From Pelomyxa schiedti (lineage: Eukaryota; Protista; Evosea), in assembly GCA_020536535.1 (NCBI GenBank), contig JAHLWZ010000381.1:662-18495 (forward strand): a stretch of DNA of 17,834 nucleotides, written 5' to 3'. Numbering within the stretch: position 1 is the stretch's first letter; each line of letters starts with the position of its first letter. The notes beneath the pieces were generated by a model. The model was not told the DNA's origin and did no database searches. It worked only from the letters and a program-made list of their open reading frames with translations. This document shows, in pieces, positions 1,947-16,338 of this stretch. A program made the position numbers and the translations under genes.

Positions 1947-2237
1947 CTATGTCTCAACCTTGTCCTTCTCCTCCGTGTCCTTGTCAGCCTCTTTCATTTT
2001 ATGGACCGCCTCTGAGACCCTCGAACCACCAAGCTTGCCCCTCTCGTGTGCGGTAAGTGGCTCATGAGCTTTTTGCTTCTCCAATATATCCTCTATAGCA
2101 TGCTTCTCTCCACCCAACTCCTCTGCCCTTTGCGCCGCCTTGTAGGCCTTTCCGCCAAGCACCCCAGCTTCCTGTCGGCTCAGGGTCTCTCCAGATTCCT
2201 TCTTCTCTAGTATCTCTTGCACTTTTGGATCATCCAT
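1947..2237 (-). CDS. 96-aa hydrophilic small protein with repeated hydrophobic-GG motifs (VLGGKAYKAAQRAEELGG and HERGKLGGSRVSEAV) and an acidic tail. It resembles Con-6/KGG-type stress or conidiation proteins.
   Basis: The ORF is intronless and starts at a true ATG at 2237 (the six-frame track extends it to an upstream GTG). Its composition and motifs resemble Con-6 (HERRVLGGYKATL...), recalled from memory. Confidence 0.5.
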   Translation of the reverse strand: MDDPKVQEILEKKESGETLSRQEAGVLGGKAYKAAQRAEELGGEKHAIEDILEKQKAHEPLTAHERGKLGGSRVSEAVHKMKEADKDTEEKDKVET

Positions 2238-3173
2238 TTCTTCCCTACACAGCACCGCTCACAGATTGTCTGATGCTTACTTCTTGGCTGTTTGTTTTGT
2301 GGGCTAACTTGCTTGCTTTCTTCTTTACTCTCACCTTCTTCAACTAGTTGTTTGTCCTTAAGTGGTGTTGTTATTTTTCATTGTCTATTTGTCCCGTCTG
2401 CCACACAACCAGTAGTCACGTCATCTGTGCACTTTTTAAAACGATCAAAAGTTTTAACTGCAACTGATCGTTCCTCGAATCGGTTCTCTTGTCTTGGAAA
2501 CAAAACAAAAAAAACCCAAGCCGTTCGGCAGTAGGCACCGCGACCTTCAAAAACAAAAGAAACAAAAAGTGCGTGTGGGTTATATCCGGTTTTTTGGTCC
2601 ATGTTGTGTTTGTGTTTTTTTTTTTTTTTCCCTTTGAACGATGTGACACAAACGGAGGTGACGTACCCACCCATAATGCGCTGGAGATATCATTGCAATC
2701 CTCCTGTTCGTGTTTGCCTTCCTTGTTGCAGTTCTGGCTGTTCTTGGCTACCTTGCCCACCGATTCGCTGGCAAGGCCTAAACTCAAGACAAAACCAATC
2801 CCATAAGCACGCCAACCTAGTTGGTGCTGCCTTGTTTATGCACTTGTTGGCTAGGGAGTACAACGTCCCTAAACCAGCCAAATGAAAACAAGTGGTACTA
2901 ATAGATCTATGACAACGTGATAGACCATTGGCTTTTGTGGTTGGGACCAACGATCTCCGAGCTCGCACTACCAGGGGAGAAAATAGCAATAGCTCCTGCT
3001 CCAACTTAGTCATGCCCATTACATAGAACGGTGCACCTTTTTCAGTGTCGTTTCGGCGGCGTAAAAACGAAGATTCGGGCTACCGTCTGGCGGTTTTTTT
3101 AAAAAAAAATTAAGAAAACAAGCAACAAAACAAGCAAATTAAACAAAACAACAAAAAACCTCGGCTTCGAAAC
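2238..3173. promoter_or_regulatory. divergent intergenic region between the minus-strand small gene and the + strand NACHT-TPR gene. It contains a T17 tract (about 2614-2630) and an A-rich leader at 3095-3165. It is a probable bidirectional promoter and 5' UTR region.
   Basis: No convincing coding potential. The ORFs here are low-complexity K- or F-rich. Homopolymer tracts are present. Confidence 0.3.
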
Positions 3174-3308
3174 ATGGCAGCGAGTGAGAGGGGGGTGTTT
3201 AGCGACCACGTGTTTTTCCTTCTGGATCTTCCGGCTCCCAACAAAAAAAGTGTGACGCAAATCATACGAGACTATGGGGGAGAAGTCTCTTCGATGCCGT
3301 CAAAGATG
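3174..3308 (+). CDS. NACHT-TPR gene exon 1, the first half of the BRCT domain (MAASERGVFSDHVFFLLDLPAPNKKSVTQIIRDYGGEVSSMPSKM)
   Basis: ATG at 3174 and strong donor GTGAGT at 3309. Shows the BRCT pattern (hydrophobic core and the GG motif). Confidence 0.65.
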
Positions 3309-6300
3309 GTGAGTGAAACGTTTTGGATTTTGTAGTAAGTTTTGAGTCTGAGTTGATTTGTTTAGGTTACACATGTTGTGGTTAGGCCTGATGATTTGAG
3401 CAGTAATTCATTCAAAGTTCAAGCGATTCTCAAAAAGAACCCAGCAATGCAAGCTGTTCTCGAGACGTGGGTGCAAGATAAAACGAGAGGTGCCAGGAAG
3501 GTGGCACCAAAGCCAAAAGCTCCACCACCTCCACCTACACCTGCCTTTGTTCCACCAGAGGATGACACTATGTCCATGATCAGTGTCAGGACAACTTCGT
3601 CAGTGGCTTCTTCCGCGTCTGCTCTTGCACAAGTTGTTCCAGCGAAACCTGTCCCAGTACCTACTGTAACAATGGTCTTGCCAACTTCAGGTTTTTTGGG
3701 AAAATAAACTGTAACCCGACTTATGCTCCACAGGGCCAAATACTGGAGATTTCCGGCTTGCTCTTTTTGGTGTACACTTTAGACCAGGGCCAGGATTTAA
3801 GCTGAAAATAGGTTCCGTTACAGCAACGGAATACGAGTTCCATAGTAGCTCTTCTGTTATTGTAAATGTACCTCCTTGCACGTATGTTCCCTTCAATGCA
3901 ACAATAAGTCTGAAAGTCTTTAGGGTGCCTCCCGGAACTGTTCCTATACACGCCACAAATGACAATGGGCGCCACTATGGTTTTCCAATGGAGTTCCGTT
4001 TTTATGGTATTTTGTTAAAAAAAACCTATTCCTTCCTCACTAATGAATGAATAGATGCTGGTGCCGGCCAACTTTCCCAGTCAGTTGAACAAAAGGTTCT
4101 TGTGGGTGGTGAGTTCCTTCTACATTAACTTGCTGTCAGATTGCCATTCTCCGTGGGCAGCTTACAAACGTCCGAAGGGCCATTTCTAATATCCAACAAA
4201 CTGAAATCGATTTGAGGACGCAGCTTGCTCAACTCACTGATTTGAAACTATTGGAAGAGCTGGAACCCGAGGAGGTTGAATATATCTTTTGTGTGGAGAC
4301 TTTTTAAGGATTTTAGGTACCTCCTGAGCAAGCTGTGGCAGCTACAGAGAAACCGGCACCTCTTCGACATGAGGAGTTTGAGAGGGAAATTAGGATCTTC
4401 ATTTCCAGTCCATTCAGGGACATGAAGGAGGAGCGAGAGAAGATTGTGTGTTGCTTGTATTTCCTTGTCTCAATTTCCTTACGTTTAACACCATCTACCA
4501 TAGGTTAAACTTGTCATCCCCAAAGTACGCAAGTTATGTATGTCATTAGATGTTGCTGTCAGCTATGTAGATCTAAGATGGTACCTTTTTACTTCTTTAT
4601 TTTGTCTCACGTTTCTTTTTAGGGGTGTCACTGGGGCGCAAAGTGAGCAAGCCACTATGCTTTTGATGTGTCTAAGAGAAGTTGCCAAGTCAAATGTATT
4701 TGTGGGACTTTACGGGGAGCGTTACGGATGGGCAATTTCCAATGAGGGTGACACAAGTAACAACGACCTTCTAAGTCGCTCCTTTGATCTTGCTGCACGT
4801 GAATTCCCGTGGATTAACGAATACAGGGACAGAAGTGTTACTGAACTCGAGATGCGAATGGTACTGGTTTCTATACTGCTTTGCCATGTTCTGATCGTAA
4901 TCAGCTTCTTGGGCATAAATATGATGGTTCTAATAAACCTGCATGGTTCTATCTCCGTGATCCGTATTTCATCGAAGAAGTACCCAAAGAGCAAAGACAT
5001 CTCTTTGTGTCTGAAGGCCCAACTGCAAGTAGAAAGTTATCCACACTCAAGACAGATGTGCATAAAGCTGGACATCCTGTAAAGGACTACCTTCGAGCTG
5101 ATCAGATGGCCGAATTTATGTTTGAGGACTTAAAACAATATGTTGCTAAGAAGTATCCCGAGGTTGACCTACATTTTATCACTCTGAAATTGACCTGTTC
5201 CCAGGGTATGTCACTCAGTGACGAAGAACGTGAAGACCTCCGACATAAGCTCACTTCGCGAAACCTCACCCGTGTATACCTACCAAATGAAAGTAACTTC
5301 CTGGAACTTGACAAATTTGTCTCAAGTGAGAAGGAGTTACCTATGGTCATTGTTGGAGGGGTAGGGAGCAACAAATCCCTCTCCCACATTTAATATGCAC
5401 ATAGGGTGGCAGCGGCAAGTCTGCTTTGATGGCCAACTGGGTGATGAGACACAAGGTACTCAAATAATCATTTTCTCGTTAATATGATAAGGAGCACCAC
5501 CCCGAAGACGTAATTGCATTACACTATGTAGGCTGTTCGCCAGCATCAACGAATTATGCTTTCTTGCTTGGCAGGCTTATGCGGCTGGTACACGCCACTT
5601 TTACCACAGTGAAATTTACTCCATTAGATATCAGAACAACTTGGTGCCGCTGTCGATCTTCCATCTGATCAAAGCAAAACCCCTCTTGCATTTGTTACCT
5701 GGCTTTCCAACCTTTCAGTAGTAAATGTCAACAACCGCCGTATTGTGAGTTTTCTTCTCTTGCGCTTTTATCCAACTAAATTATTCAGATTGTGGTTATC
5801 GATGGTCTTAATAAGTTGGATGAACGAGATAATGCGCAAGAATTATTGTGGTTCCCTCAGTAAGCCAATATTGTCATCTTTATATGCGTTCTTAGTTTTC
5901 AAAAGAACTTTCCCGAGGTTCATGAGTGTCATAGTAACAACAGCTCCGATCCAAAGGATTGCGCATACCCTCAAAGTACCAAAGCCTTCCTTTGGTATTC
6001 AATTTACGCTTTGTAGAAACGCAACTGCCCAACAATGGACCTTGCTCTACTTGAGGAAGCAGAGCGCAAATCTTTTGTCCGAATGTACTTGAACCAGCGT
6101 GCAAAGAAGTTATCTGATCAGCAAGAATTTATGATTGCTTCCGCTGAGCAAACAGCTAATCCCAGGTTCGATTTATTTGGAGACTTAGACTTTTTTTTAT
6201 GCACTGTAGATTCTTACAGACACTCCTTGATGATATTGCAGTATTCGGGGAGCACGAAGCACTCGAAAAACGGATTAAGCAATGTCTTGCAGCGAAGAAC

Positions 6301-8904
6301 ACATCTAAGCTATATGAGCTTCTTCTCAACAGACTTGAATCGGACTATGACCCTGCAAAGAAGGGAATAGTGAAGCTATTCATGGCTTTAATTGGTGCAT
6401 CTAGACGTGGTCTCGATCTAGAAAACGAGGTTTCCGTATTGCTCGAGCAGAGTGGGATCACGCCTGATGAATGGTGCCCCTTTCCACTTCCGCTTTGTCT
6501 TCTGCCCTCTTACACTTGCCACTGCTAAACTTTTAATTACCAATTTAAGGTCCCCTCTGTTTGTAGTCATCGAGGAGCTTTTTATATCTATGAGAGGTAT
6601 ACTGAGCTTCGCAAACGAGGATATTGCTAAGGCTGCAAGATCTGTCTTCCTTTGGGATAAAACAATTAGAAACCAATTTCATCTTAAGATAGCAAATTTC
6701 TTCTCTGGTATACAAGGCTTTACAGAAAGAAAGGTTTCCATCCCAAAAAAAAAAAAAATCAAATTCCTAACTAAAACAAATCAAAAGCTTGAAGAGTTAC
6801 CTTACCAGTTGGAGATGGCCGAAGAATGGCCAAAATTAGTTGCTCTTCTCTGTGATGCAACTCTCTTTGATAAACTCTTCACACCTACAACCAAGTTTGA
6901 CCTGGTACATCTAGAGCCAAAATATTTTGTCTTATTTATGATCAATCCAGTTCCATTGGGTTCGACTGTGTGAAGGCAATGTGCCAGGATTTGATATTTG
7001 TGCCCCGTTTTTGGATAAAGTGTCTCGGAGTATATTCCCACCTGACCTTATCCCAGCTGATTTCTGTTATAAGTAAGTCATTACTGAAACATGACCCGCT
7101 AAAAAACATTACCCATAGGGTTGGCCGGTGCTTTGACGAAATGTCAAAGATTAAAGGAGCCGAGGTAATGTACCAAAAAGCTATTGAGTTATACTATGCC
7201 ACATCCATGCCTCTTGAAGTCGCCAAAGTCAAACGATACTTAGCACAGCTGTACCACATGACCAGCAGGTTTGTCATACCCACCTCGTTTGTTGGTCAAT
7301 TTTTGAAGGAGCGACAAAGCTGAAGCAATGCTGAAGGATCTCACTGAAATTTACGAAAAGGAGAAGGGTCCTGATGATATTGAGATAGCAACTACGTTAA
7401 ACAGTTTGGGAAGTCTATATGTTGACCTTTGCCAGTAAACTGTTCATGACAAGAAGTCAACTATTTACCTTTTTCACAGGGGACCAAGTGCACATCCTGT
7501 TCTAGAACGAGCTTTGCGAATATGTAAGTGACCTTTCCAGGCTTTCTAAGCGTTAAACTACAACAAGGCGAGGCACAAGTCGGTCCTGATCACAATATTA
7601 CTGCTGATATCGCTTATACTCTTGGTGCTTTATATCATTACGAGCGCGACTTACTTCCCAAAAATCTCGAAAAATCGGAAGAATTTCTCAAGGTACCTCT
7701 CCACTCACTAATACAAGTCTTACATGTGACTTAGCGAGCACTGAATATCAAAGAAAAGACATTTGGCTACTACCACCCAGATGTTGCGTGGGTGCTCAAT
7801 AAACTGGGGTGTGTGTACATGGAACAAGATCAGTATAATGATGCTGAAGAGTGCTTTACTGTATGTGGCACTCCTCATCGAGCCTCAGCACTAACTTCCC
7901 TTTAACAGATGGCACTAGAAATTCGAGAAATCTCCCTTGGACCAAAGCACGCTTCCGTAGCACAATCACTGGAAAATGTACTAACACTATTCGCCCTTCA
8001 GGAACGCTACACAACTGCCGAAGACTGTGGCAGAAGGTTGACTATAATAGTGCAATCAGTCCGCTAATGCTTATCTCTCTATAGAGCACTTGACATTCTC
8101 TCTGAAACCTTTGGAGAAAATAGCTTCCAAGTGAGCAGCATATTGCTTCGAGTGGGTGCCCTCATGTTTGTAATGGAGAAGAAACCTCAAGGGACACAAG
8201 ACCTGACTCGCGCAATTGCAATTCGCACAGCGCTTTTTGGACCAGGTCGGTGACGTGCTCTCCATTTGCTTTACTCAAACCCCCCGCCCCCGCCCTCTTC
8301 CAGATCATCCACACACAAAGGAGGCAAAGCTGACCCTGGAGGAGCTGGTGGCACCACCCAAGCCGGAACCGCCATCGATCAGGGAGCAGCCCAAGGCCCC
8401 ACCCCCGCCGCCACCCCCGCCTCCTCGCGCCTTCGTGGCCCCGCCGCCGCCACCCCCAACGCCCGGCGGTGCACCGGGCGGAATCCCGCCGCCCCCGCCG
8501 CCTCCACCTCCGCCGCCTCCCCCTCCTTCATCTGGAAAGCCGCCGCCCAAGACGAAGGTCACTGCTGCTGTGGCCCTGGAGAAGACTGAGAGTGTGTCGC
8601 TTGAGGATGCGATTCAGAAACAGACCGGGCTCCACCACGTCACGGAGGCGAATGATAGGTCCAGCGCCAGGTTGATAATCTCTCTTTCTTCACATATGTA
8701 TTCCTGCCACTTACGGATATTCACACTAGCCGGAATGCAGCAGCCATGGCTGGACTCAAGACCCGTAGGATGGTTGAAGTGAAGGGCAAAGCCAAAGCCC
8801 CCAGGTCCACACTGGCACAGTTCTTGCAAGCAAACAAGGCCACAACCCAGTTCACACAGCAACCAGTACTGGATGTCAAGCCGACGATGGACAAGAAGAG
8901 CTGA
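3174..8904 (+). CDS. span of a multi-exon gene (at least 20 exons) encoding BRCT, IPT/TIG-like, coiled-coil, DUF4062, NACHT NTPase, TPR array, polyproline and WH2-like domains. It is an NPHP3-like STAND protein.
   Basis: A continuous in-frame exon chain with 19 introns of 36-76 nt. The domain motifs were read from the translation. Stop TGA at 8902-8904 and AATAAA at 8907. Confidence 0.75.
3366..3690 (+). CDS. exon 2: the second half of the BRCT domain (VTHVVVRPDD...) plus a Pro/Ser-rich linker
   Basis: Acceptor TTGTTTAG at 3365 after a 57-nt intron. Open frame to the donor at 3691. Confidence 0.6.
3734..4006 (+). CDS. exon 3: IPT/TIG-like beta-sandwich domain (PNTGDFRLALFGVHFRPGPGFKLKIGSVTATEYEFHSSSSVIVNVPPCTYVPFNATISLKVF...FRFY)
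   Basis: A 91-codon open frame with no Met, so it is absent from the ORF track. It is bounded by a 43-nt intron (3691-3733) and donor GTATTT at 4007. It shows the IPT/TIG sequence pattern. Confidence 0.5.
4080..4108 (+). CDS. exon 4, a small exon (VQLNKRFLWV); the acceptor choice is uncertain
   Basis: This is the only phase-compatible connection between exon 3 and exon 5. Donor GTGAGT at 4109. Confidence 0.35.
4161..4274 (+). CDS. exon 5: coiled-coil segment (LTNVRRAISNIQQTEIDLRTQLAQLTDLKLLEELEPEE)
   Basis: Acceptor GTGGGCAG at 4160. Heptad-like composition. A 42-nt intron follows. Confidence 0.55.
4317..4445 (+). CDS. exon 6: the start of DUF4062 (…EFEREIRIFISSPFRDMKEEREKI)
   Basis: The IFISSPFRDM motif matches the NPHP3-type DUF4062 N-terminus VFISSTFRDM. 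Confidence 0.7.
4504..4580 (+). CDS. exon 7: DUF4062 (VKLVIPKVRKLCMSLDVAVSYVDLRW)
   Basis: A 58-nt intron upstream and a 42-nt intron downstream. VDLRWG is a conserved DUF4062 motif. Confidence 0.7.
4623..4860 (+). CDS. exon 8: DUF4062 core (GVTGAQSEQ...CLREV...FVGLYGERYGW...VTELEMRM)
   Basis: GERYGW and TELE are hallmark DUF4062/NPHP3 motifs. The exon is 79 codons plus a split Trp codon. Confidence 0.75.
4905..5360 (+). CDS. exon 9: the linker into the NACHT domain (…AWFYLRD…ELPMVIVGG)
   Basis: 152 codons in phase 0. Ends in the first half of the P-loop. Confidence 0.75.
5405..5455 (+). CDS. exon 10: NACHT Walker A (GGSGKSALMANWVMRHK), which completes GGGGSGKS
   Basis: A 44-nt intron upstream and a 36-nt intron downstream. 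Shows the GxxxxGKS P-loop. Confidence 0.8.
5492..5587 (+). CDS. exon 11 (EHHPEDVIALHYVGCSPASTNYAFLLGRLMRL)
   Basis: Aligns to the NPHP3-type segment after the P-loop. Donor GTACAC gives a 40-nt intron. The alternative 19-nt intron was rejected. Confidence 0.6.
5628..5744 (+). CDS. exon 12 (ISEQLGAAVDLPSDQSKTPLAFVTWLSNLSVVNVNNRRI)
   Basis: Strong donor GTGAGT at 5745. Confidence 0.6.
5789..5859 (+). CDS. exon 13: NACHT Walker B (IVVIDGLNKLDERDNAQELLWFP)
   Basis: Shows the hhhhDGLxxLDE pattern. Strong donor GTAAGC at 5860. Confidence 0.75.
5906..5975 (+). CDS. exon 14 (QTFPRFMSVIVTTAPIQRIAHTLK), the WLP..LP..VrvIvTtR-type NACHT motif
   Basis: A phase-2/1 junction across a 46-nt intron. A 41-nt intron follows. 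Confidence 0.6.
6017..6165 (+). CDS. exon 15 (KRNCPTMDLALLEEAERKSFVRMYLNQRAKKLSDQQEFMIASAEQTANP)
   Basis: In-frame chain. Resembles the NPHP3/NWD-type region ...SKPQSANPLYL. Confidence 0.6.
6210..6473 (+). CDS. exon 16 (RFLQTLLDDIAVFGEHEALEKRIKQCL...VLLEQSGITPDEW)
   Basis: A 44-nt intron upstream. Shows the conserved ...LLxELRVFGxxE-like motif. Confidence 0.6.
6550..6960 (+). CDS. exon 17 and possibly one more exon: the helical region leading into the TPR array (SPLFVVIEEL...KLEELPYQLEMAEEWPKLVALLCDATLFDKL...). The internal exon structure is not resolved. It contains an A13 tract encoding KKKK.
   Basis: A single long open frame. LPYQLxxAxxWxxL resembles the NPHP3/TEP1-type LPYHL..AGEW motif. 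Confidence 0.5.
7000..8245 (+). CDS. TPR array of kinesin-light-chain/NPHP3 type, with at least 6 TPRs over several exons. Examples: AIELYYATSMPLEVAKVKRYLAQLY; LKDLTEIYEKEKGPDDIEIATTLNSLGSLY; ALNIKEKTFGYYHPDVAWVLNKLGCVYMEQDQYNDAEECF; ALEIREISLGPKHASVAQSLENV; ALDILSETFGENSFQVSSILLRVGALMF. Exact exon boundaries were not derived.
   Basis: A repeating 34-aa pattern, A..L.NLA.LY...G.Y.EAE.L..RAL.I.EK..G..HP.VA, in successive short ORFs joined by GT..AG introns. Confidence 0.65.
8304..8670 (+). CDS. penultimate exon: polyproline tracts (PPPPPPPPP...PPPPPPPPPPPPPPP) followed by a verprolin/WIP-type WH2-like motif (SLEDAIQKQTGLHHVTEANDRS)
   Basis: Phase-1 junction from the last TPR exon (donor GTCGGT at 8246, a 58-nt intron). 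The Pro-rich, FH1-like tract and the ...L(K/H)(K/H)VxxxNDRS WH2 consensus are both present. Confidence 0.55.
8730..8904 (+). CDS. terminal exon (SRNAAAMAGLKTRRMVEVKGKAKAP...MDKKS*), with stop TGA at 8902-8904
   Basis: A 59-nt intron (8671-8729), an in-frame stop, then AATAAA. Confidence 0.5.
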
Positions 8905-8906
8905 GG

Positions 8907-8912
8907 AATAAA
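8907..8912 (+). promoter_or_regulatory. polyadenylation signal AATAAA, 3 nt after the stop of the NACHT-TPR gene. A second AATAAA lies at 8947-8952.
   Basis: Read directly. Confidence 0.6.
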
Positions 8913-9267: not shown

Positions 9268-9280
9268 GTCCGTGCGTGCT

Positions 9281-9347
9281 TTGGTTGTGTTTTTTTTTGG
9301 TTTTTTTGTTTTGTTTTTTGTGTTTTGGTTTTTTGCTTTTGGTTGTC
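9281..9347. repeat. imperfect (GTTTT/GTTTTTT)n T/G-rich microsatellite inside intron 1 of the PARP4-like gene
   Basis: Read directly. It belongs to the same motif family as the repeat at 344-411. Confidence 0.85.
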
Positions 9348-9556: not shown

Positions 9557-9850
9557 GTTACACCTGCCTTTTTAGATGCCTGTACATCAAATAGCAGAAT
9601 TATGGAATGCTCAGATTTTGTGTATAATACTGTGAAGGAGGTTGTACTGAGCACAGAACCTCAGATATACTTGCCACCACAAGAACCAGACCCTGTACCT
9701 CCTGCGCCTGCTGCCTCCAGGGATACTTATATTCGAAGGGAAGTCATTGTTCCCTACAAATCCAAAGATGACCCTTTTAATGAAGCGGGTGCCTGGCTCG
9801 TTCAACACCATCTACTGCAAAAGCCATCATGGTTAGATCATTTTCGTTTC
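9557..9850 (+). CDS. PARP4: PARP4-like exon 3, 3' end approximate (…MECSDFVYNTVKEVVLSTEPQIYLPPQEPDPVPPAPAAS…)
   Basis: Acceptor TGAATTAG at 9556 with a 69-nt intron. Aligns to PDFIWKSIREKRLLDVKNYDPYKPLDITPPPDQ. Confidence 0.5.
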
Positions 9851-9882
9851 TAAGTATCCCTCTTTTCTAATTCGTTTCTAGC

Positions 9883-10191
9883 TTGGTGAAACTAGAATTG
9901 CATACCCGCAGCTCTTCTGATAATGCTTGGCGTGTGTATGAAGAAGTTGTGCCATGCCTTTCCACTGTGCCACCACAGACAAATACTCAGGGGAAATCAA
10001 AAAAGACCATCTCCCAACCAACACACAGGAGGCTGAGCCATCTCTTAGCCTCGGCCTCAGAGGCTATTTCTGTGTACTCCGCTCTCTATGAGAATTATAC
10101 CAACGTTGAAGGCTACACCCGCGTTGGAATACCTCCGTTTTCTTCCTTGGGATCAGATTTGGTATATGCTTCTCCAACGTTCTTTTTTTAA
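9883..10191 (+). CDS. PARP4: PARP4-like coding segment, exon boundaries not derived (…SEAISVYSALYENYTNVEGYTRV…)
   Basis: Aligns to the PARP4 segment SEDASEYFENYIEELKKQGF, recalled from memory. Confidence 0.35.
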   Translation: MVKLELHTRSSSDNAWRVYEEVVPCLSTVPPQTNTQGKSKKTISQPTHRRLSHLLASASEAISVYSALYENYTNVEGYTRVGIPPFSSLGSDLVYASPTFFF

Positions 10192-10711
10192 CTATTAAAA
10201 GATAGGTAATGGATTAAGTCCCGGGTCTGTTCTTCCTGCAATGATATCACAGCTTGTGCAAGTCATTTTTAACGGTCAGTGATGATAGAACTCTGTTTTC
10301 GAATAACATTTTTCAGCTTCATCTTCTAAGTTTGCTGGCTTGAATACTATGACACTGGATATATCATTAGACACTCTAAATGAGGCAGAGGCTATTCTAT
10401 GGTCCCTGCAAGAGCTTAGCCTTTCCAATCAACAAGGCTCTCCGAAATTCATTGAGGTATGGCACTTGAACTCGATCTTTCTCTGTGTAAATTATTTTAA
10501 CAGCTAAATGATAAACTTTCCTCGTTGCTCCCATTTAGTGATCAGCACATAACCTCAAATGAAGCATTGCTTGAGAAATATGAGTTCATCCAAACTCTAA
10601 AAGATTCTCTTTGCCTGAATGAAGGTACCCACTAAACGTGCATATTTAAGCTAATTTTCACCAGGGATCACACTTCCAGGCAGTTCTGTACAGTCCAACT
10701 CCATCATAGAT

Positions 10712-10960
10712 ATGCATTACCGCAGTCTCAATTGTCGTTTGGAATATACAGATGATCCTGCTGTGAGAGAGCTAACTTCCCGTGTCCAAGCCTCTCTAAC
10801 ATCAGCCCCTACCTTGCTACACGTGGAACATGTGTTTCATGTTGCGCGCCCTTCGGAAAATGAAGTCTTTTCTAATGTGGGTAATGTGAAACTTCTATTT
10901 CACGGTACCAAAGTGGAGCGGGTAGCTGGTATTCTTTCACATGGACTGGTTTTACCAAAG
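10712..10960 (+). CDS. PARP4: PARP catalytic domain, part 1 (…NVKLLFHGTKVERVAGILSHGLVLPK), with the donor-loop His-Gly-Thr motif. The 5' boundary is approximate.
   Basis: LLFHGTxxxxxxxILSxGL matches the PARP signature LLWHGSRxxNxxGILSQGL. Donor GTTTCC at 10961. Confidence 0.65.
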
Positions 10961-11096
10961 GTTTCCCTCAAAGCAATTCGATCTATTTTCTCAGTGCCTT
11001 AGGTTTCTGTAACTAAACTTGGAATCAAGAGAGTGGATGCTGGCCAACTTGGGGTGCACATTTGTTTCGTTTAGTTTCGTTTTACATGCCCTACAG

Positions 11097-11285
11097 AATG
11101 GTATATACTTTGCAACAGATGCCGCTGTAAGTGCTAAATACTGTAACTCTTTTGGGGAAACGTCGTTCCTATTGGTGGCTTCAGTTTCCTTAGGCAAATC
11201 TATGGATACACCAGCTCCACGAGTAGGAACCACTGCCGACACTTTACCCAACGGGTATCTGGAAATTCGAAGGGAATTTATTCTC
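11097..11285 (+). CDS. PARP4: PARP catalytic domain, part 2 (NGIYFATDAAVSAKYCNSFGETSFLLVASVSLGKSMD…). The 3' boundary is approximate.
   Basis: Acceptor CCTACAG at 11096. GIYFAxxxSKSxxYC is the PARP signature. Ser sits at the position of the catalytic Glu (LLVASVSLG against LLLGEVALG). Confidence 0.65.
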
Positions 11286-11309
11286 TAATATGTTTCTTCA
11301 GATTCCACA

Positions 11310-11810
11310 GTGTGCACTCCATCCCGAGGCATACCGACCCCAACTCGGCCTTCGAGGATGAGGAATTCTGTGTACCTCTCCCAATTTGTGAAACTGCATC
11401 ATGACCACCGACAGGTATTTGATAGCCGACAAATAATCCTGGAATACATTATCCAACTTACAAAAGCCCCTAAATCAATACCATCAACACTACCAATGCC
11501 GTCTTTTCCACAAGTTTCAATCTCTGATCCAACCACCGCCCCAGACGATCTGAAGTCTATTTTTCTTGCACCACCTTCTCTCAGCGTTTCACCCACGAAA
11601 AAGCAATCTCCTGTATACCCGGTTTTGATTGGTCAAGGCGGAGTACGTTTTTCAGTTGAAAGTACAACTGTGGCAGCCAGAATACTTGATTTAGTGGCTG
11701 AAGTTGTAGTTATTCAACATTTTAGCAATACTGGCGTTGTAGCTTGTGAAGCGAAGTATATATGCCCAATAGATAGCCATGGTTGTATATCTGCCCCCAC
11801 AATACTCTAA
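11310..11810 (+). CDS. PARP4: VIT (vault protein inter-alpha-trypsin) domain region (…VYPVLIGQGGVRFSVESTTVAARILDLVAEVVVIQHFSNTGVVACEAKYICPIDSHGCISA…). Exon boundaries were not derived.
   Basis: Aligns to PARP4 VPLEDVHIKGRIIDTVAQVIVFQTYTNKSHVPIEAKYIFPLDDKAAVCGF, recalled from memory. Confidence 0.5.
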   Translation: MCTPSRGIPTPTRPSRMRNSVYLSQFVKLHHDHRQVFDSRQIILEYIIQLTKAPKSIPSTLPMPSFPQVSISDPTTAPDDLKSIFLAPPSLSVSPTKKQSPVYPVLIGQGGVRFSVESTTVAARILDLVAEVVVIQHFSNTGVVACEAKYICPIDSHGCISAPTIL

Positions 11811-12377
11811 CCTCTCCTAGCTGCTGTTTGTGCTTTCGAATGTTACATAAATGACAAGCATGTAGTGGCACACATAGAAGAAAAAGGTCTTTTTCTTTTT
11901 TTATTGTGCCAATTGAAACAATGTCAAATATTAGGTAAGGCTCGAAAAGAATACAAAGAAGGTACACGTTTGTGCTTGACTTTTTTGTAACTTATAAGAA
12001 TACAGCAATTGAGCAAGGGCATGGAGCGTAGGTAAGCCAGATTCCTTCTACTTCTTTACCTCTATTAGGTATTTACTCGAAGAAGAATCCCCAGATGCAT
12101 GGTGCATGTCTCTTGGAAATCTTCCAGGCATATCTTGCCATGATGTTCTTACTTCCTCTTATTCTTCAAAGCAAACGCCGAAATTGTTGTTAAAATTACA
12201 TATGTGGAAGACCTGGCTTTAGCATCTAATGGGGTAAGTCCGTCAAAAGTAGTGAAATTTGTGTCTAATCAACAATACTCAGATTACCTTTACCTTACCT
12301 GCGGCTCTTGCCGGCCGTGAGGACCGTCTCAATAGTGTAACAACAACCCAAACGGCAGTTGCAACAGTTATCAAAGT

Positions 12378-12662
12378 ATGCTCCAAACAACTAGGGTAGG
12401 TATCTCATTTAGTCAGGCTCATTCCAGCGCGCCGTCATTCCATTTGGAAGCGGGAATTACTATGCCCTATGACATCACTGGCATCACTTCACCATCTCAT
12501 TTGAAAGATGTTCAAGTGAAACACACCAACACAAAGGCAACTGTCAGGGCTTTAATGACGGAACTTACAGCAGACTTTGTACTACTTATTTCTATCAAGA
12601 ACGCCCATGAACCCCGAATGTGGTTGGAAGTAAAGGACTCATCTCTACTGCTTTTTACTTAA
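12378..12662 (+). CDS. PARP4: VIT C-terminal region (…ITMPYDITGI…ALMTELTADFVLLISIKNAHEPRMWLEVKDSS…). Exon boundaries were not derived.
   Basis: Aligns to PARP4 SIEMPYVIEFIF…GFSLHIGLSAAYLPRMWVEKHPE, recalled from memory. Confidence 0.5.
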   Translation: MLQTTRVGISFSQAHSSAPSFHLEAGITMPYDITGITSPSHLKDVQVKHTNTKATVRALMTELTADFVLLISIKNAHEPRMWLEVKDSSLLLFT

Positions 12663-12671
12663 CACTTTCAG

Positions 12672-13148
12672 GTGGATGATACACAAAACTGGGCAGCGAT
12701 GATTTCTATATCCCCAGATTTTCAAAATTATATACAGTCTGCCTGTCAGAGCAGATCTGAGGTCATATTCGTGGTTGACAGGTCCATAAGCATGGCCTCC
12801 AATCTTGCAACTTTACGTTGGGCTCTTCAGGTAATCAGATGGATGATTTTGCACTCTCACGAAACTCAGATACTCATATCCCAACTGGGAAGTGAGGATA
12901 TGTTTAATGTAGTTGGATTTGGATCCCACTTTGAGTCGTTATTTGTACAGTCGCAATCTGCAACTTCCGCCAAACCTGTCGGGTACAGATATGCCCAAAT
13001 GTTACAAGCCACCTTTGGGGGTACTTCCCGTCACCATACCTCCCTCCCCAAGCTTAATCACCTTTTTCAACAGGCACAAATCTTTACTCTGTTCTCAGAG
13101 CAGTGTTTTCTCTTGGTCAATCCAATGACTTCTCTTCAAGAACAGTAA
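12672..13148 (+). CDS. PARP4: von Willebrand factor A (VWA) domain with the MIDAS motif DRSIS (…SEVIFVVDRSISMASNLATLRWALQV…DMFNVVGFGSHFESLF…MLQATFGGT…). Exon boundaries are approximate.
   Basis: Shows the VWA pattern hhhhhDxSxSM....hh......FnhhxFgs........A..Ggt. Confidence 0.6.
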   Translation: MDDTQNWAAMISISPDFQNYIQSACQSRSEVIFVVDRSISMASNLATLRWALQVIRWMILHSHETQILISQLGSEDMFNVVGFGSHFESLFVQSQSATSAKPVGYRYAQMLQATFGGTSRHHTSLPKLNHLFQQAQIFTLFSEQCFLLVNPMTSLQEQ

Positions 13149-13678
13149 TCCTTCTCACTGATGGCCTTTTTGACATTTTTCCCGTATTGCCCATAGTGAA
13201 AAGGTGGAGAGACTCCTTGTATCTCAGTATTAAATCTGTTTAGTGCCCGGGCTCACACCAAACTATTTACTGTTGGAATCGGGGAGGCATCCAGGCATTC
13301 TATTTGCACCCTTGCACGGATAGGTGGGGGATGCTGTCAGTTCGTTCCATCCAATCCCTCACCCAAACATGAGAAACTGTTGAATCACATGTTAGCACAA
13401 CGAAATCAAAATGTGGCTTCCCTAAATTTGGAACATTCTTATACTGTTTTAGACTTTATCTGGTATAAACATCAAGTGGCACACAACACACACAATTAAG
13501 CAAGTACCCTCTGAAATTTACAATATGTTTCAGAATCAGGTTTTCCTCCAAGACTAGTTTTCCTTTTTCTAACACATTAAAGTCTTATACTATTTATGGT
13601 CTCCTTAGTGGCATATGTAACCAGGTGTCAATTCAGGGGAATATCGGAGCACAGTTTTACCCTCACCCAATAAATTAG

Positions 13679-13874
13679 TGGTAATCGAGAGCAGGGAGTT
13701 TTCCACAACAGTGTCATCAAGTGAACTTACTGCTACACATGGCACATTGATTCACAAACTGGCAGCCAGAGAGCTTATTCGAGATTGGGGGGAAAATTCT
13801 CTCCACGAACAGGATACAGAGCACTTTGTACAAAAAAATAATATGGTTTCAGATGTTATTGCTCTAAGTAAAAA
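13679..13874 (+). CDS. PARP4: PARP4-like exon (…TTVSSSELTATHGTLIHKLAARELIRDWGENSLHEQDTEHFVQKNNMVSDVIALSKK). The acceptor is approximate.
   Basis: Aligns to PARP4 TTELQKTTGTMIHKLAARALIRDYEDGILHENE, recalled from memory. Donor GTATGG at 13875. Confidence 0.55.
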
Positions 13875-13928
13875 GTATGGATATCAAAATACAAAAATGG
13901 AGTTAGGATAGTAATATACTACAAAAAG

Positions 13929-14025
13929 GTATGGCTTCATCACTCCTTTTACTTCTTTTGTGGCAGTGGAAGAGAGAAACCGTAATGACGCCTTAGTTTT
14001 GAAAGCACCTTCAGTGAAAGAGATT
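13929..14025 (+). CDS. PARP4: PARP4-like exon (YGFITPFTSFVAVEERNRNDALVLKAPSVKEI)
   Basis: A 54-nt intron (13875-13928). FTSFVAVE matches PARP4 FTSFVAVEKRDE, recalled from memory. GTA at a codon boundary (14026) gives a phase-0 donor. Confidence 0.55.
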
Positions 14026-14068
14026 GTATCAGAGTCTAAATTTTTGTACTTCCTTTGACTGCCAACAG

Positions 14069-14251
14069 CTGCAAGGCCATGACGTCGATGAAATCAAAGA
14101 AATTGCTTGGGAGCATGACCTTGAACCAGTCCCAAAGAAGGACGAACTTCAGAAACAACGAGATTCAAATTCCTTTTCCATTGCTCTTTATGGTGACCCA
14201 CAGACTGGTATAAAAACTCACCCACACTTTTACCTCCTAAGACATCTCAAG
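14069..14251 (+). CDS. exon entering the Ran-like domain (LQGHDVDEIKEIAWEHDLEPVPKKDELQKQRDSNSFSIALYGDPQTGIKTHPHFYLLRHLK). There is no in-frame ATG, so it is probably a continuation of the PARP4-like ORF through a 43-nt intron (14026-14068).
   Basis: FSIALYGDPQTGIKT-HPHFYLLRHL aligns to Ran [21 protein letters not shown]. The P-loop carries a one-residue insertion that displaces the Lys. Donor GTAAAA at 14252. Confidence 0.65.
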
Positions 14252-14324
14252 GTAAAACAGCTTGGCTAAAACGCATGGTTTTTCCTTCAAATTTGCAACC
14301 CAATCCCCATTTATACAACTACAG

Positions 14325-14660
14325 CTGAGCGGGGAGTTTGAGCACAAATACATTGTAACCCAGGAGCCAGAGCAATTCAAACTGACTCTAAGTACAAATC
14401 GAGGTGCTATCCACTTTAATTTGTACGACATGCCTGGTGTAGCTACCAGCACAGCAACCCCTCCTACTGCCCATGATGGTAGTATAGTCTTCTTTGACGT
14501 TACTTCTCGCGCGTCATATAAAAATCTGCCCATCTGGTACATGAAGGCTGGAAGCACTTCCGGTTCACCTACAAGTCCAGTTGTTGTATTTGTTGGCAAT
14601 AAAGTGGACTGCTCAGAACGGAAACTTCATGCTCGACAAATTGTCTTTCATAAGAAAAAG
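14325..14660 (+). CDS. Ran-like GTPase domain core (LSGEFEHKYIVTQ…RGAIHFNLYDMPGVATSTATPPTAHDGSIVFFDVTSRASYKNLPIWY…VVVFVGNKVDCSERKLHARQIVFHKKK)
   Basis: Collinear with Ran [39 protein letters not shown]…[22 protein letters not shown]…[26 protein letters not shown]. The G4 motif NKVD is conserved. G3 DTAGQ is replaced by DMPGV. Confidence 0.75.
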
Positions 14661-14705
14661 GTATTGGCTCTCCTTTCTCAAGTGTCTTCCTGATTGCCAA
14701 TTTAG

Positions 14706-14728
14706 AATTGCAAGTACTATGACCTAAG
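14706..14728 (+). CDS. 23-nt micro-exon (NCKYYDL), matching Ran NLQYYDIS
   Basis: Flanked by 45-nt and 44-nt introns (donors GTATTG and GTACCT). Confidence 0.6.
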
Positions 14729-14772
14729 GTACCTCCTTTTATGATATCCACTCTTAAGTATTTACTCTTTAG

Positions 14773-14832
14773 TGTTAAATCTTCGTACAACCTGGAGTCA
14801 CCTCTACTAAGTCTTGCCCGGTCCCTTTTATG
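14773..14832 (+). CDS. Ran-like exon (SVKSSYNLESPLLSLARSLL + C), matching Ran [21 protein letters not shown]
   Basis: The G5 motif SAK is retained as SVK. A 40-nt intron (14833-14872) restores the frame into the next exon. Confidence 0.55.
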
Positions 14833-14872
14833 GTTGTGCACAATCCTTCTCCCTGAATTTAATTCTTCTCAG

Positions 14873-16297
14873 TGACCCACAATTGGAGTTTGTTCAAGAA
14901 GTGGCACTTGCTCCACCTGAAGTAACTTTGGATCAGGCATTAATAAAGAGGTGGGAACAGGATTTAGCTGATGCAGCATCAATCCCCCTTCCCGATGAGG
15001 ATGATGACTTTGGAGGCACTGTTCCATCCAGTGCTGTCGCTCCTCAGCATGCAGTGCCGTCCAGTACCTTTGATTTCGCTCTCCGACCAAGCAAAGAAAA
15101 AAGTGCACCAGGTCCAACAGGCTTTTTCAGTCAATCTGCTACAGTTCCATCTGTGCAAGCTTCTGTTACCCATTCAGTACCATCTCTTTTTAGCTCTCCA
15201 GTTGCACCTTCCTTTAATTTCGCTTCACAAGCCACTACCTCTCGAGGGTTATTTTCTCCCCAAGGACAAGTGACGTCAACTCAACCTTCTCCTCTATTTG
15301 GCGCACCTCTGCCCTCCTATACTCCACCGGCCCCGTCACCTTTTGGTAGTTCTTCATCATTGTTTTCTGGCAGTTCGTTTGGATCTCAACCACAACCTTC
15401 TACCGCTGCATTTGGCACTGCAAGCACTTCTTCACTTTTTGGCGGATCCCAACAGGTACCTGCCTCGAGTGGGGGCGCTGTGAGTGCGTTTGGAGCTCTA
15501 GCATCTCCTACTTCCGTTTTTCCACAGGCATCATTTGGCATGGCAAGCCCTGCAATGTCCACTACAATCCCTGCAGCCACTTGTTGTCTGCCGTCCATCT
15601 TTCCTGCAGCCAGTTCTACTACTTCCACTCTCTTTTCTGCACCACAAATATTTCCCTCGGCCGCATCTTCCACAGCACAGTTGTTCCCAGCGCCTCAATT
15701 GTCCTCTTTCCCAACATTCAGTCTACCGGCCACTCCTGCAGCCAGTTGTACGTCCACCTTCAGTCTACAGGCCTTTCCTGCAGCCAGTTCTACTACTTCC
15801 ACTCTCTTTTCTACACCACAAGTATTTTCCTCTGCACCAACTTCCGTAACGGCGTTGCCGCCGGCGCAGCAATTACCGTCTTCCGCCACTTTTGCTCCAC
15901 CCACTACTCCACAGCTCAGGTCTCCACATCCTGGGACTGGAACAATTTCATTTGCAGCTGCCAGAGCGCGAAGCAAGGCATTTCAAAATAGGAAACACTC
16001 TGAATCAGATATTAGTAATACAAGCAAGTCTTCAATTGACCCTCCCTTGCCTCCGTTCTGCTGCCGTGCTTGTTGCAGCCCCTCCACACTCAGTGATTCC
16101 CAATTGCAGTTTGTACTTAAGGGACCTAAGAATACGAAGAGGATCTGGGGTGTGTGCTGGATGGATGCCGTTCTTGCATTAGCATCAACCTTGTCACCTT
16201 TACGTGACTGGGCATGTTGTACTAGGAACGGAGAACCTCCTATTGGCTATGCTGGCAGCTTACTTGAGTGTATCACATCATTTTTCCGCTGTTGGAT
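14873..16297 (+). CDS. Ran C-terminal tail (DPQLEFVQEVALAPPEV…LADAASIPLPDEDDD) that continues, with no stop, into a roughly 470-aa FG/SLFG/AFG-repeat low-complexity region (nucleoporin-like). It ends at TAA 16299-16301, or splices at the GTAAGT donor at 16298.
   Basis: A 495-codon open frame. DPQLEFV..ALAPPEV…PDEDDD matches the Ran C-terminus DPNLEFVAMPALAPPEV…LPDEDDDL. Many xFG, SLFG and FGxxS repeats follow. Confidence 0.65.
15568..15915. repeat. in-frame tandem duplication of about 174 bp inside the FG-like region, with unit starts CCTGCAGCCA… at 15568, 15603, 15736 and 15777
   Basis: Read directly. TTTCCTGCAGCCAGTTCTACTACTTCCACTCTCTTTTCT recurs at 15597 and 15771. The protein repeats are FPAASSTTSTLFSAPQIF and FPAASSTTSTLFSTPQVF. 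Confidence 0.7.
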
Positions 16298-16338
16298 GTA
16301 AGTAATTCATCAACCTATCAATGTTTCAACCCCTTAAG

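Follow-up and report, generated by a model that had tools for sequence, protein, structure and literature searches.

A 30-exon gene in the Pelomyxa schiedti window

We analysed a stretch of 17,834 nucleotides from Pelomyxa schiedti (contig JAHLWZ010000381.1; the window, numbered here from its first letter). Positions 3174..8904 (+) hold a gene for a protein of 1455 residues. In order, this protein carries a BRCT domain, an IPT/TIG domain, a coiled coil, a NIR (DUF4062) domain, a NACHT NTPase, a TPR array, a polyproline region, a WH2-like motif and a basic, helical tail. Sequence comparison identifies it as the Pelomyxa-lineage member of a family found across Amoebozoa and in Diphylleia.

The gene was built by hand. 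Junctions were picked from changes of reading frame and from GT/AG sites, and were then corrected against orthologues. Automatic exon chaining, by a shortest-path search or a codon-usage dynamic programme, was dropped because it skipped small exons or merged introns. The coding region runs from an ATG at 3174 to a stop codon ending at 8904 and comprises 30 exons and 29 introns. All 29 introns are GT-AG, with lengths of 36-76 nt and a median of 44 nt. On the forward strand the first ten lie at 3309-3365, 3691-3733, 3882-3923, 4007-4054, 4096-4139, 4275-4316, 4446-4503, 4581-4622, 4861-4904 and 5163-5204. Introns 11 to 20 follow at 5361-5404, 5456-5491, 5588-5627, 5745-5788, 5860-5905, 5976-6016, 6166-6209, 6474-6549, 6734-6787 and 6905-6950, and the last nine at 7073-7118, 7269-7308, 7435-7479, 7524-7567, 7693-7734, 7861-7908, 8037-8084, 8246-8303 and 8671-8729. 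Two of them, at 3882-3923 and 5163-5204, are 42 nt long and in frame. An AATAAA read from the sequence at 8907..8912 (+), 3 nt past the stop codon, is probably the polyadenylation signal.

The model aligned end to end with a P. schiedti protein of 1440 residues (KAH3742581.1, here P0001; 82% identity), with no breaks at exon junctions; the database annotates that protein as 'Tetratricopeptide repeat protein'. It also aligned end to end with a complete Trinity transcript open reading frame (ORF) of 1430 residues from Mastigella eilhardi (P0002; 59% identity), in which a single ORF extends from the BRCT/TIG head through the core to the polyproline/WH2-like tail. Because the model is colinear with both, we place all modules in one transcription unit. 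On these comparisons the gene is real and single, with 30 exons. A preliminary description of this DNA had proposed one exon chain and had asked whether the end exons might instead belong to separate units; the Mastigella ORF, with both end modules, answers in favour of one gene.

The NIR-NACHT-TPR core and its N-terminal head

The NIR domain, a TIR-like NADase-type domain, occupies 4383..5060 (+; residues 312-489). Pfam scores were read against the gathering score (GA) of each model, and on the full gene model DUF4062 scored 54.9 bits (GA 24.7). The motifs IFISSPFRDM, VDLRWG, GERYGW and SVTELEM were all found in the protein. In phmmer the domain matched the solved NIR domain of human TEP1 (PDB 11gz_A) with E = 5.2e-24. 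DUF4062 has been described as a TIR-like NADase that produces ADP-ribose, and has been renamed NIR (bioRxiv 10.64898/2026.05.01.722283; 10.64898/2026.09.04.749371). According to the same two preprints it is the effector of bacterial Avs2, Swarozyc, Vulcan and Vesta, and the NIR domain of human TEP1 is active with E1008 as its catalytic residue, equivalent to E108 of PsAvs2; NADase activity in TEP1, Avs2 and Swarozyc depends on that glutamate (10.64898/2026.05.01.722283; 10.64898/2026.09.04.749371). Eukaryotic NIR proteins are mostly NLR-like and are present in 76% of Amoebozoa (10.64898/2026.09.04.749371).

The SVTELEM motif (4834..4854, +; residues 429-435), with Glu432 and Glu434, is the counterpart of SVTEMEV in TEP1. 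In the residue alignment RSVTELEM of this protein falls on RSVTEMEV of TEP1, and both glutamates are conserved. By numbering, the TEMEV motif of TEP1 should hold catalytic E1008. Since E432 and E434 are both conserved, the catalytic position is kept whichever of them corresponds to E1008. An [ST]x[ST]ExE motif was present at the equivalent position in 115 of the 120 best homologues. Judged from sequence, it is plausible that this NIR domain is a competent NADase.

The NACHT NTPase follows at 5340..6094 (+; residues 569-736; Pfam 37.0 bits, GA 26.7). Its Walker A motif GGGGSGKS (5355-5422, +; residues 574-581) is split by the intron at 5361-5404 as GG/GGSGKS, and its Walker B motif IVVIDGLNKLDE (5789-5824, +; residues 664-675) is intact. 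A TPR array of the KLC/NPHP3 type lies at 7053..8330 (+; residues ~983-1283), with about seven repeats estimated from its length. On the full model TPR_12 scored 134 bits, TPR_NPHP3 (PF24885) 131.1 bits (GA 100) and TPR_10 95 bits. The core had thus been read well in the preliminary description: its DUF4062 motifs (with TELE for the last), the intact Walker motifs, the KLC-type repeats and the nephrocystin-3-like order of DUF4062, NACHT and TPR were all borne out, the last by the domain order together with the TPR_NPHP3 match. Only the split of Walker A had been misplaced, as GGGG/SGKS. Its suggestion of ADP-ribose signalling draws support from this core, through the DUF4062 NADase class, the TEP1 match and the two retained glutamates, and not from the BRCT domain.

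The protein and NPHP3 share the order of DUF4062, P-loop NTPase and KLC-type TPR, with TPR_NPHP3 above its cut-off. By contrast, NPHP3_N (20.9 bits, GA 24.8) and NPHP3_hel (19.3 bits, GA 27.9, scored on an earlier version of the gene model) fell below theirs. The protein begins MAASERG and has no Gly2 for myristoylation, and its N-terminus is occupied by the BRCT domain; in NPHP3 the Gly2 myristoylation site serves ciliary targeting. NPHP3 is not known to contain a BRCT, TIG, polyproline or WH2 module. The best 120 matches named no animal NPHP3; in them the amoebozoan family is followed by bacterial proteins. Because NPHP3_N and NPHP3_hel are below cut-off and the Gly2 site is missing, we classify the protein on sequence criteria as NPHP3-like and not as an NPHP3 orthologue.

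Among the best 120 matches, the closest relatives outside the eukaryotic family were bacterial DUF4062-NACHT-TPR proteins. With TEP1, Avs2 and Swarozyc the protein shares a NIR domain on the N-terminal side, adjoining a NACHT/STAND NTPase that is followed by C-terminal repeats. TEP1, however, is a protein of vaults with a TROVE head and WD40 repeats. Avs2 starts with the NIR domain and ends with the TPR array, whereas this protein adds a BRCT-TIG-coiled-coil end and a polyproline/WH2-like end. Sequence comparison thus assigns the core to the NIR-STAND, NLR-like class.

At the N-terminus the BRCT domain spans 3189..3485 (+; residues 6-85) and is split by the intron at 3309-3365. On the full model Pfam BRCT scored 30.5 bits over residues 6-69 (GA 21.3), with 30.5-36 bits across scans. 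When the N-terminal 311 residues were scanned in isolation, BRCT scored 32.6 bits and TIG 25.6 bits. These residues were also modelled with AlphaFold2, using 16 aligned relatives. The BRCT region (residues ~10-90) was predicted with the order beta-alpha-beta-beta-alpha-alpha-beta-alpha at a predicted local distance difference test score (pLDDT) of ~90. The BRCT domain is therefore taken as real, on a Pfam score above cut-off and a BRCT-type topology in the model. Inspection of the aligned sequences by eye found LDLP in this protein at the place, past beta1, of the S/T-G of a phosphopeptide-binding BRCT pocket, where relatives have H-G or D-G. A lysine in the alpha2 stretch N-S/G-F-K-I/V-Q is conserved in the BRCT domains of the family, again by eye.

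The IPT/TIG domain lies at 3660..4059 (+; residues 144-232), across the introns at 3691-3733, 3882-3923 and 4007-4054. Pfam TIG scored 22.2 bits on the full model over residues 144-219 (GA 20.9), and 22.2-25.6 bits across scans. AlphaFold2 predicted an all-beta domain at residues 141-232 with pLDDT >90. In a Foldseek search of the PDB its best match was the IPT/TIG domain of EBF1 (3mqi; E = 2.3e-7, root-mean-square deviation 1.9 Å, target TM-score 0.82). Further matches were the TIG domain of EBF3 with its helices, the dimerisation domains of NF-kB and NFAT, the TIG domain of CAMTA1 and plexin IPT domains. All of the top 50 rows for the model of residues 1-311 were TIG domains. The TIG fold is thus confirmed at the level of the predicted structure. 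A long helix or coiled coil, IAILRGQLTNVRRAISNIQQTEIDLRTQLAQL (4084..4238, +; residues 241-277), comes next; it was predicted as helix by AlphaFold2 and is conserved across the family.

The fold is shared with the IPT/TIG domains of EBF, NF-kB, NFAT and CAMTA, and in EBF helices directly follow the TIG domain, as they do here. Those proteins are DNA-binding transcription factors, whereas this protein is presumably cytosolic and has its TIG domain flanked by a BRCT and a NADase-type domain. The BRCT domain, the TIG domain and the coiled coil after it had all been anticipated, the TIG domain as a single exon at 3734-4006. The domain itself stands, and the single exon does not: the in-frame 42-nt intron at 3882-3923 lies inside it. 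Phospho-peptide or PAR docking by the BRCT domain found no support, and neither did a link to DNA damage; by eye, the S/T-G pocket motif is absent from the BRCT of this protein.

The C-terminal tail and the family across Amoebozoa and Diphylleia

Downstream of the TPR array is a proline-rich region (8351..8548, +; residues 1292-1357) with proline runs of 9, 6 and 14. Runs of 9 and 15 had been reported previously, of which only the first is exact. Similar proline runs precede the tail motif in the two closest relatives (P0001 and P0002) and in P0005, P0008, P0012, P0017 and P0020. The WH2-like motif itself, SLEDAIQKQTGLHHVTEANDRS, is at 8597..8662 (+; residues 1374-1395). Its spacing, L1374...I1378...L1384-H-H-V1387, is that of WASP and WIP. 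AlphaFold2 of the tail alone predicted an 8-residue helix, LEDAIQKQ, followed by a non-helical TGLHHV stretch, at pLDDT ~60. In the model this layout of a helix followed by an extended segment is that of a WH2 domain.

For a profile comparison, reference WH2 sequences were first verified in the PDB: WIP (2a41_C, QAGRNALLSDISKGKKLKKTVTNDRSAPILD), N-WASP, MIM and Spire. In hhalign the family motif, built from 14 sequences, aligned with them in the canonical register (P = 0.0044, probability 7.8%). The helix fell on LLxxI, L-H-H-V on L-K-K-T/V and DRS on DRS. The motif resembles the WH2 domains of WIP/verprolin (LLSDISKGKKLKKTVTNDRSAP in PDB 2a41), MIM (LKKTTTNDRSAP in 2d1k) and WASP-family proteins in its proline tract, predicted short amphipathic helix, L-basic-basic-V type motif at the canonical spacing and NDRS. 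Here, however, it is attached to an NLR-like ATPase and not to an Arp2/3 activator, and there is no acidic, tryptophan-containing end. We read the tail as probably actin-binding, mainly because it follows polyproline, recurs across the family and is replaced by actin itself in some relatives. A G-actin-binding motif of the verprolin/WIP/MIM type is thus the probable, if unproven, identity suggested by sequence.

The remainder of the tail (8663..8901, +) contains a helix and a basic patch, SASRNAAAMAGLKTRRMVEVKGKAKAP, and a second amphipathic helix, STLAQFLQANK, and is conserved in P0001 and P0002. The last intron (8671-8729) lies inside it, so that the tail reads LHHVTEANDRSSAS/RNAAAMAG, the same as in orthologues. 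The second predicted amphipathic helix (8806-8838; residues 1424-1434) resembles the Dictyostelium WH2 helix MLAQFDQQK, without an LKKV-type motif, and may be a degenerate second actin-binding element. No Pfam scan of the protein matched an FH2 domain, and the C-terminus comes about 100 residues past the proline runs. A formin was ruled out on the missing FH2, which also removes the label 'formin-like' once given to the tail. The tail ends in QPVLDVKPTMDKKS, which is basic and free of tryptophan and so is no WASP-type acidic end of a verprolin-central-acidic (VCA) region; a VCA protein of the WASP family was ruled out for this protein on that ground.

Beyond Pelomyxa and Mastigella, relatives were found in Mastigamoeba balamuthi (P0004), Cavostelium apophysatum (P0005), Balamuthia mandrillaris (P0006), Synstelium polycarpum (P0009), Cavenderia fasciculata (P0012), Dictyostelium spp., Pyxidicula operculata (P0024) and Copromyxa protea (P0025), and among several metagenomic sequences. 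The D. discoideum member is DDB_G0287407 (Q54KD0). Outside Amoebozoa the family is represented in Diphylleia rotans (CRuMs). In the N-terminal regions of relatives Pfam matched BRCT in 16/16 and TIG in 15/16. In DDB_G0287407 the TIG and coiled-coil sequences are recognisable by eye, and the protein opens with a divergent BRCT-like stretch. With the BRCT-TIG-coiled-coil head as query, a profile search returned only fragments of the same family and unrelated TIG proteins, and no other protein class.

The tails of the family take two forms. In the first, a proline- or Q-rich tract precedes a WH2-like motif. This form occurs in Pelomyxa, Mastigella, Cavostelium, the dictyostelids and several metagenomic members, and most full-length relatives without an actin end have proline runs followed by the motif. 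Examples are GDMLAQFDQQKLKRVQNANDRS in D. discoideum, GRGDLLEAIKNF / KGRGDLLEAIKNFGKM in P0018 and RSQLLDDIRRRGG in P0010; in some members the start of the motif (GRDQLLDAIKNF, RSQLLDDIRRRGG) is that of a textbook WH2. In the second form, at least six relatives carry a complete actin domain: those of Balamuthia (P0006), Diphylleia (P0014) and Copromyxa (P0025), together with P0015, P0026 and the P0028 cluster. The Balamuthia domain matched Dictyostelium actin residues 5-375 with E = 3e-214 and is near-identical along the printed alignment. The Diphylleia protein has proline runs as well as the actin domain, and P0028 has a WH2-like element, a WWKQGY motif and an acidic stretch before its actin. 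The actin link previously suggested for the C-terminus is strengthened by this replacement of the tail with a complete actin domain.

Two further features were seen in the tails of relatives. P0005, P0010, P0018 and P0028, one of which also has actin, share a conserved GWWKQ(N/G)Y motif downstream of the WH2-like element; this protein lacks it. In dictyostelid tails (P0009, P0012, P0013, P0016, P0020) the WH2-like motif is followed by a short helix, ASQIVENLIGKKK, and an acidic-aromatic end (IDMGALFD, DMDEMFA), which in sequence recall the C and A segments of the VCA region in WASP-type proteins.

Relatives, including transcript-derived ORFs, carry the same end modules, as a check of orthologues proposed earlier had asked. 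The ends had been called non-canonical, which is true against animal NPHP3; across the amoebozoan family this architecture is the rule. The database names of the family genes are uninformative ('Tetratricopeptide repeat protein', 'actin', 'TPR repeat-containing protein DDB_G0287407'). Full-text literature searches, which covered DDB_G0287407, NACHT with WH2 in Dictyostelium and NLR-like amoebozoan proteins with BRCT, gave no paper on the BRCT/TIG head or WH2/actin tail of this family. Neither NIR preprint mentions BRCT, or actin as a domain; TIG was not searched for there. The family is conserved, and its end modules appear undescribed.

A candidate actin-coupled NADase switch and its genomic surroundings

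We favour reading the protein as an NLR-like NADase switch with actin coupled to its sensor end. We put the probability of this reading at about 0.5; what we infer in it is that the protein binds actin, that it is an active NADase and that the signal runs in the direction assumed. STAND and NLR proteins normally carry their effector at the N-terminus and sense through the repeat end (10.64898/2026.09.04.749371, Avs section). Because of this general logic, the TPR array with the actin-linked tail is assigned to the input and the NIR domain to the output. The C-terminal end would then be the input side, as in other STAND/NLR proteins. There the TPR array and the polyproline/WH2-like tail would hold profilin-actin or G-actin; some relatives have a built-in actin domain in place of the tail. 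Actin might be a ligand that the protein monitors, or might anchor it to the actin cortex. A change at the C-terminal end would free NACHT to bind nucleotide and oligomerise, and oligomerisation would gather the NIR domains into an active NADase. On the effector side the TIG domain and the helix after it would probably form a dimerising element, as in EBF and NF-kB, and the BRCT domain would probably be a docking module. The preliminary description had likewise arrived at an NLR-like switch, tied to the cytoskeleton or to DNA-damage/ADP-ribose signalling; our results support the actin and ADP-ribose sides and leave DNA damage without support.

Several observations count against the actin-coupled switch. 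In vitro, and under the conditions tried, NADase activity was lacking in full-length human NPHP3, NWD1 and NWD2 (10.64898/2026.05.01.722283; 10.64898/2026.09.04.749371), so a conserved glutamate is no guarantee of activity. A PADLOC scan of the core gave no match. The role of actin could be input, output or mere tether. For the tail, the hhalign probability of the family motif against WH2 domains was only 7.8%. Pfam WH2 (PF02205) gave no match on the tail of this protein even at E = 10, and on the tails of 17 relatives it scored in two (16.5 and 12.9 bits), both below its GA of 23.1; compared with WIP, MIM and WASP, every domain-model threshold was missed. The tail profile found no WH2 chain in the PDB, only a chance match to mitofusin. 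The protein has LHHV where WH2 domains have LKKV. The verprolin-type motif first noted as LHHVTEANDRS is thus present without a domain-model match, and of the Pfam hits sought for the end modules BRCT and TIG were obtained and WH2 was not. Among the actin fusions, the TPR-actin junction of Balamuthia crosses a predicted intron, and those of Diphylleia and Copromyxa are single Trinity contigs. We regard the transcript-derived fusions as stronger evidence than the Balamuthia fusion.

The best-placed alternative, which we nevertheless consider unlikely, makes actin the output. Oligomerisation would cluster the polyproline/WH2 tails or the fused actins and seed a filament, as do Spire, Cobl and VopL, nucleators with tandem or dimerised WH2 domains; the NIR domain would then serve as a scaffold or provide a second output. 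A polyproline stretch ahead of a WH2 domain is the usual layout of actin assembly factors, and a near-canonical actin in place of the tail also fits a pre-loaded nucleus. The alternative is further favoured by the possible second WH2-like helix STLAQFLQANK, with its likeness to MLAQFDQQK of Dictyostelium, by the dictyostelid acidic-aromatic tail end that recalls a VCA region and by the inactivity of NPHP3, NWD1 and NWD2 in the preprints. However, 115 of 120 homologues keep the catalytic-type NIR glutamate motif, which speaks for NAD+ chemistry as the output under selection. In STAND proteins, moreover, the effector is normally N-terminal and the repeat end is the sensor. The tail of this protein has no FH2 and no clear C/A region with tryptophan, and a single WH2 usually sequesters actin and does not nucleate it. 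If the tail did drive actin assembly, the protein would represent a type of actin nucleator that is new and gated by nucleotide.

More doubtful again is a tail that does not bind actin at all. It would be a proline linker, serving as a spacer or as a ligand of SH3, WW or EVH1 domains, joined to a basic NLS-like (nuclear localisation signal) or other short motif. The resemblance to WH2 would then be chance, and the actin-bearing relatives would be a separate innovation or chimeras of assembly or annotation. The failed Pfam and PDB searches, the low hhalign probability and the tail pLDDT of only ~60 suit this alternative, as do the basic stretch KTRRMVEVKGKAKAP, which could be an NLS, and the predicted intron on which the Balamuthia fusion relies. 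Against it, the pattern of helix, L-basic-basic-V and DRS recurs after Pro- or Q-rich tracts in lineages as distant from one another as Archamoebae, Dictyostelia and Cavostelium, and some members have the textbook WH2 starts given above. Actin fusions number at least six, in independent sequences that come from genomes, transcriptomes and metagenomes, and P0028 bears both the WH2-like element and actin. Finally, a gene-model artefact, in which BRCT/TIG or polyproline/WH2 exons of neighbouring genes were wrongly chained to the NACHT-TPR core, is essentially excluded by sequence comparison: tiny introns with donors that are weak beyond GT do leave many alternative chains open, but the junctions are gap-free against the 1440-residue P. 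schiedti protein, complete transcript ORFs of Mastigella, Cavostelium and Diphylleia have the same head and an actin-linked tail, and the next gene, a PARP-like one, begins only past the AATAAA and a spacer of ~700 nt.

Within the actin-coupled switch, a narrower and tentative possibility, itself improbable at present, is an innate-immune 'actin guard'. An NLR-type NADase would hold an actin monomer at its sensor end and fire when a pathogen toxin alters that actin. The monomer would be recruited by the polyproline/WH2 tail in Pelomyxa and Dictyostelium, or would be present as an integrated decoy in Balamuthia, Copromyxa and Diphylleia. The trigger would be actin modified, cross-linked, cleaved or sequestered by the toxin, and firing would consist of NACHT oligomerisation and NAD+ depletion. 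If true, protists would have here an equivalent of the integrated-decoy NLRs of plants and of abortive infection by bacterial NIR-Avs. Plant NLR-IDs ('integrated decoys') are alike in having an extra domain at the sensor end of an NLR, here a likely pathogen target (actin) or its recruiter. They differ in that there is no homology and in having another NTPase clade and another effector; the likeness would be a functional one, nor is any pathogen or toxin known for this amoebal family.

NIR-NACHT proteins were recognised only in the 2026 preprints as widespread NLR-like NADases common to antiphage systems and eukaryotes. The present family offers a lead on what eukaryotic NIR-NLRs may sense, its putative sensor end being actin-linked through a polyproline/WH2-like tail or actin itself. 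Its effector end adds a BRCT-TIG-coiled-coil module found by profile search in this family only. One member, DDB_G0287407, sits in D. discoideum, a genetically tractable phagocyte, which makes activation and an immune role directly testable.

The gene ~700 nt downstream is a multi-exon PARP4/vault-PARP-like gene (~9600-14250, +) with PARP catalytic, VIT and vWA-like pieces. TEP1 (NIR-NACHT-WD40) and PARP4 are vault partners. No PARP gene was found beside the family members of Balamuthia or D. discoideum, and a functional link to the neighbour was dropped because the pairing is absent at the Balamuthia and Dictyostelium loci. The PARP4-like neighbour is probably coincidental.

A Ran-like GTPase lies at ~14018-16298 (+), with a Ran-type C-terminal sequence (DPQLEFVQEVALAPPEV, then PLPDEDDD). 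Its G1 motif is an unusual LYGDPQTG, and its G3 motif is YDMPGVA in place of WDTAGQE. The frame at 14811-16298 stays open into ~430 residues of S/T/P-rich FG repeats, which looks like a Ran-like/FG-repeat fusion or else an unrecognised intron or stop. Between genes, a (GGTTTT)11 microsatellite and a T/G-rich repeat of 7/14 nt occur at 343-411 and 9280-9344. An ORF of 102 residues at 1947-2255 (-) has a repeated (S/T)xxExGxLGG pattern with many Lys and Glu and no Pfam match at E <= 0.01; from its sequence it may be a small stress-protein-like gene.

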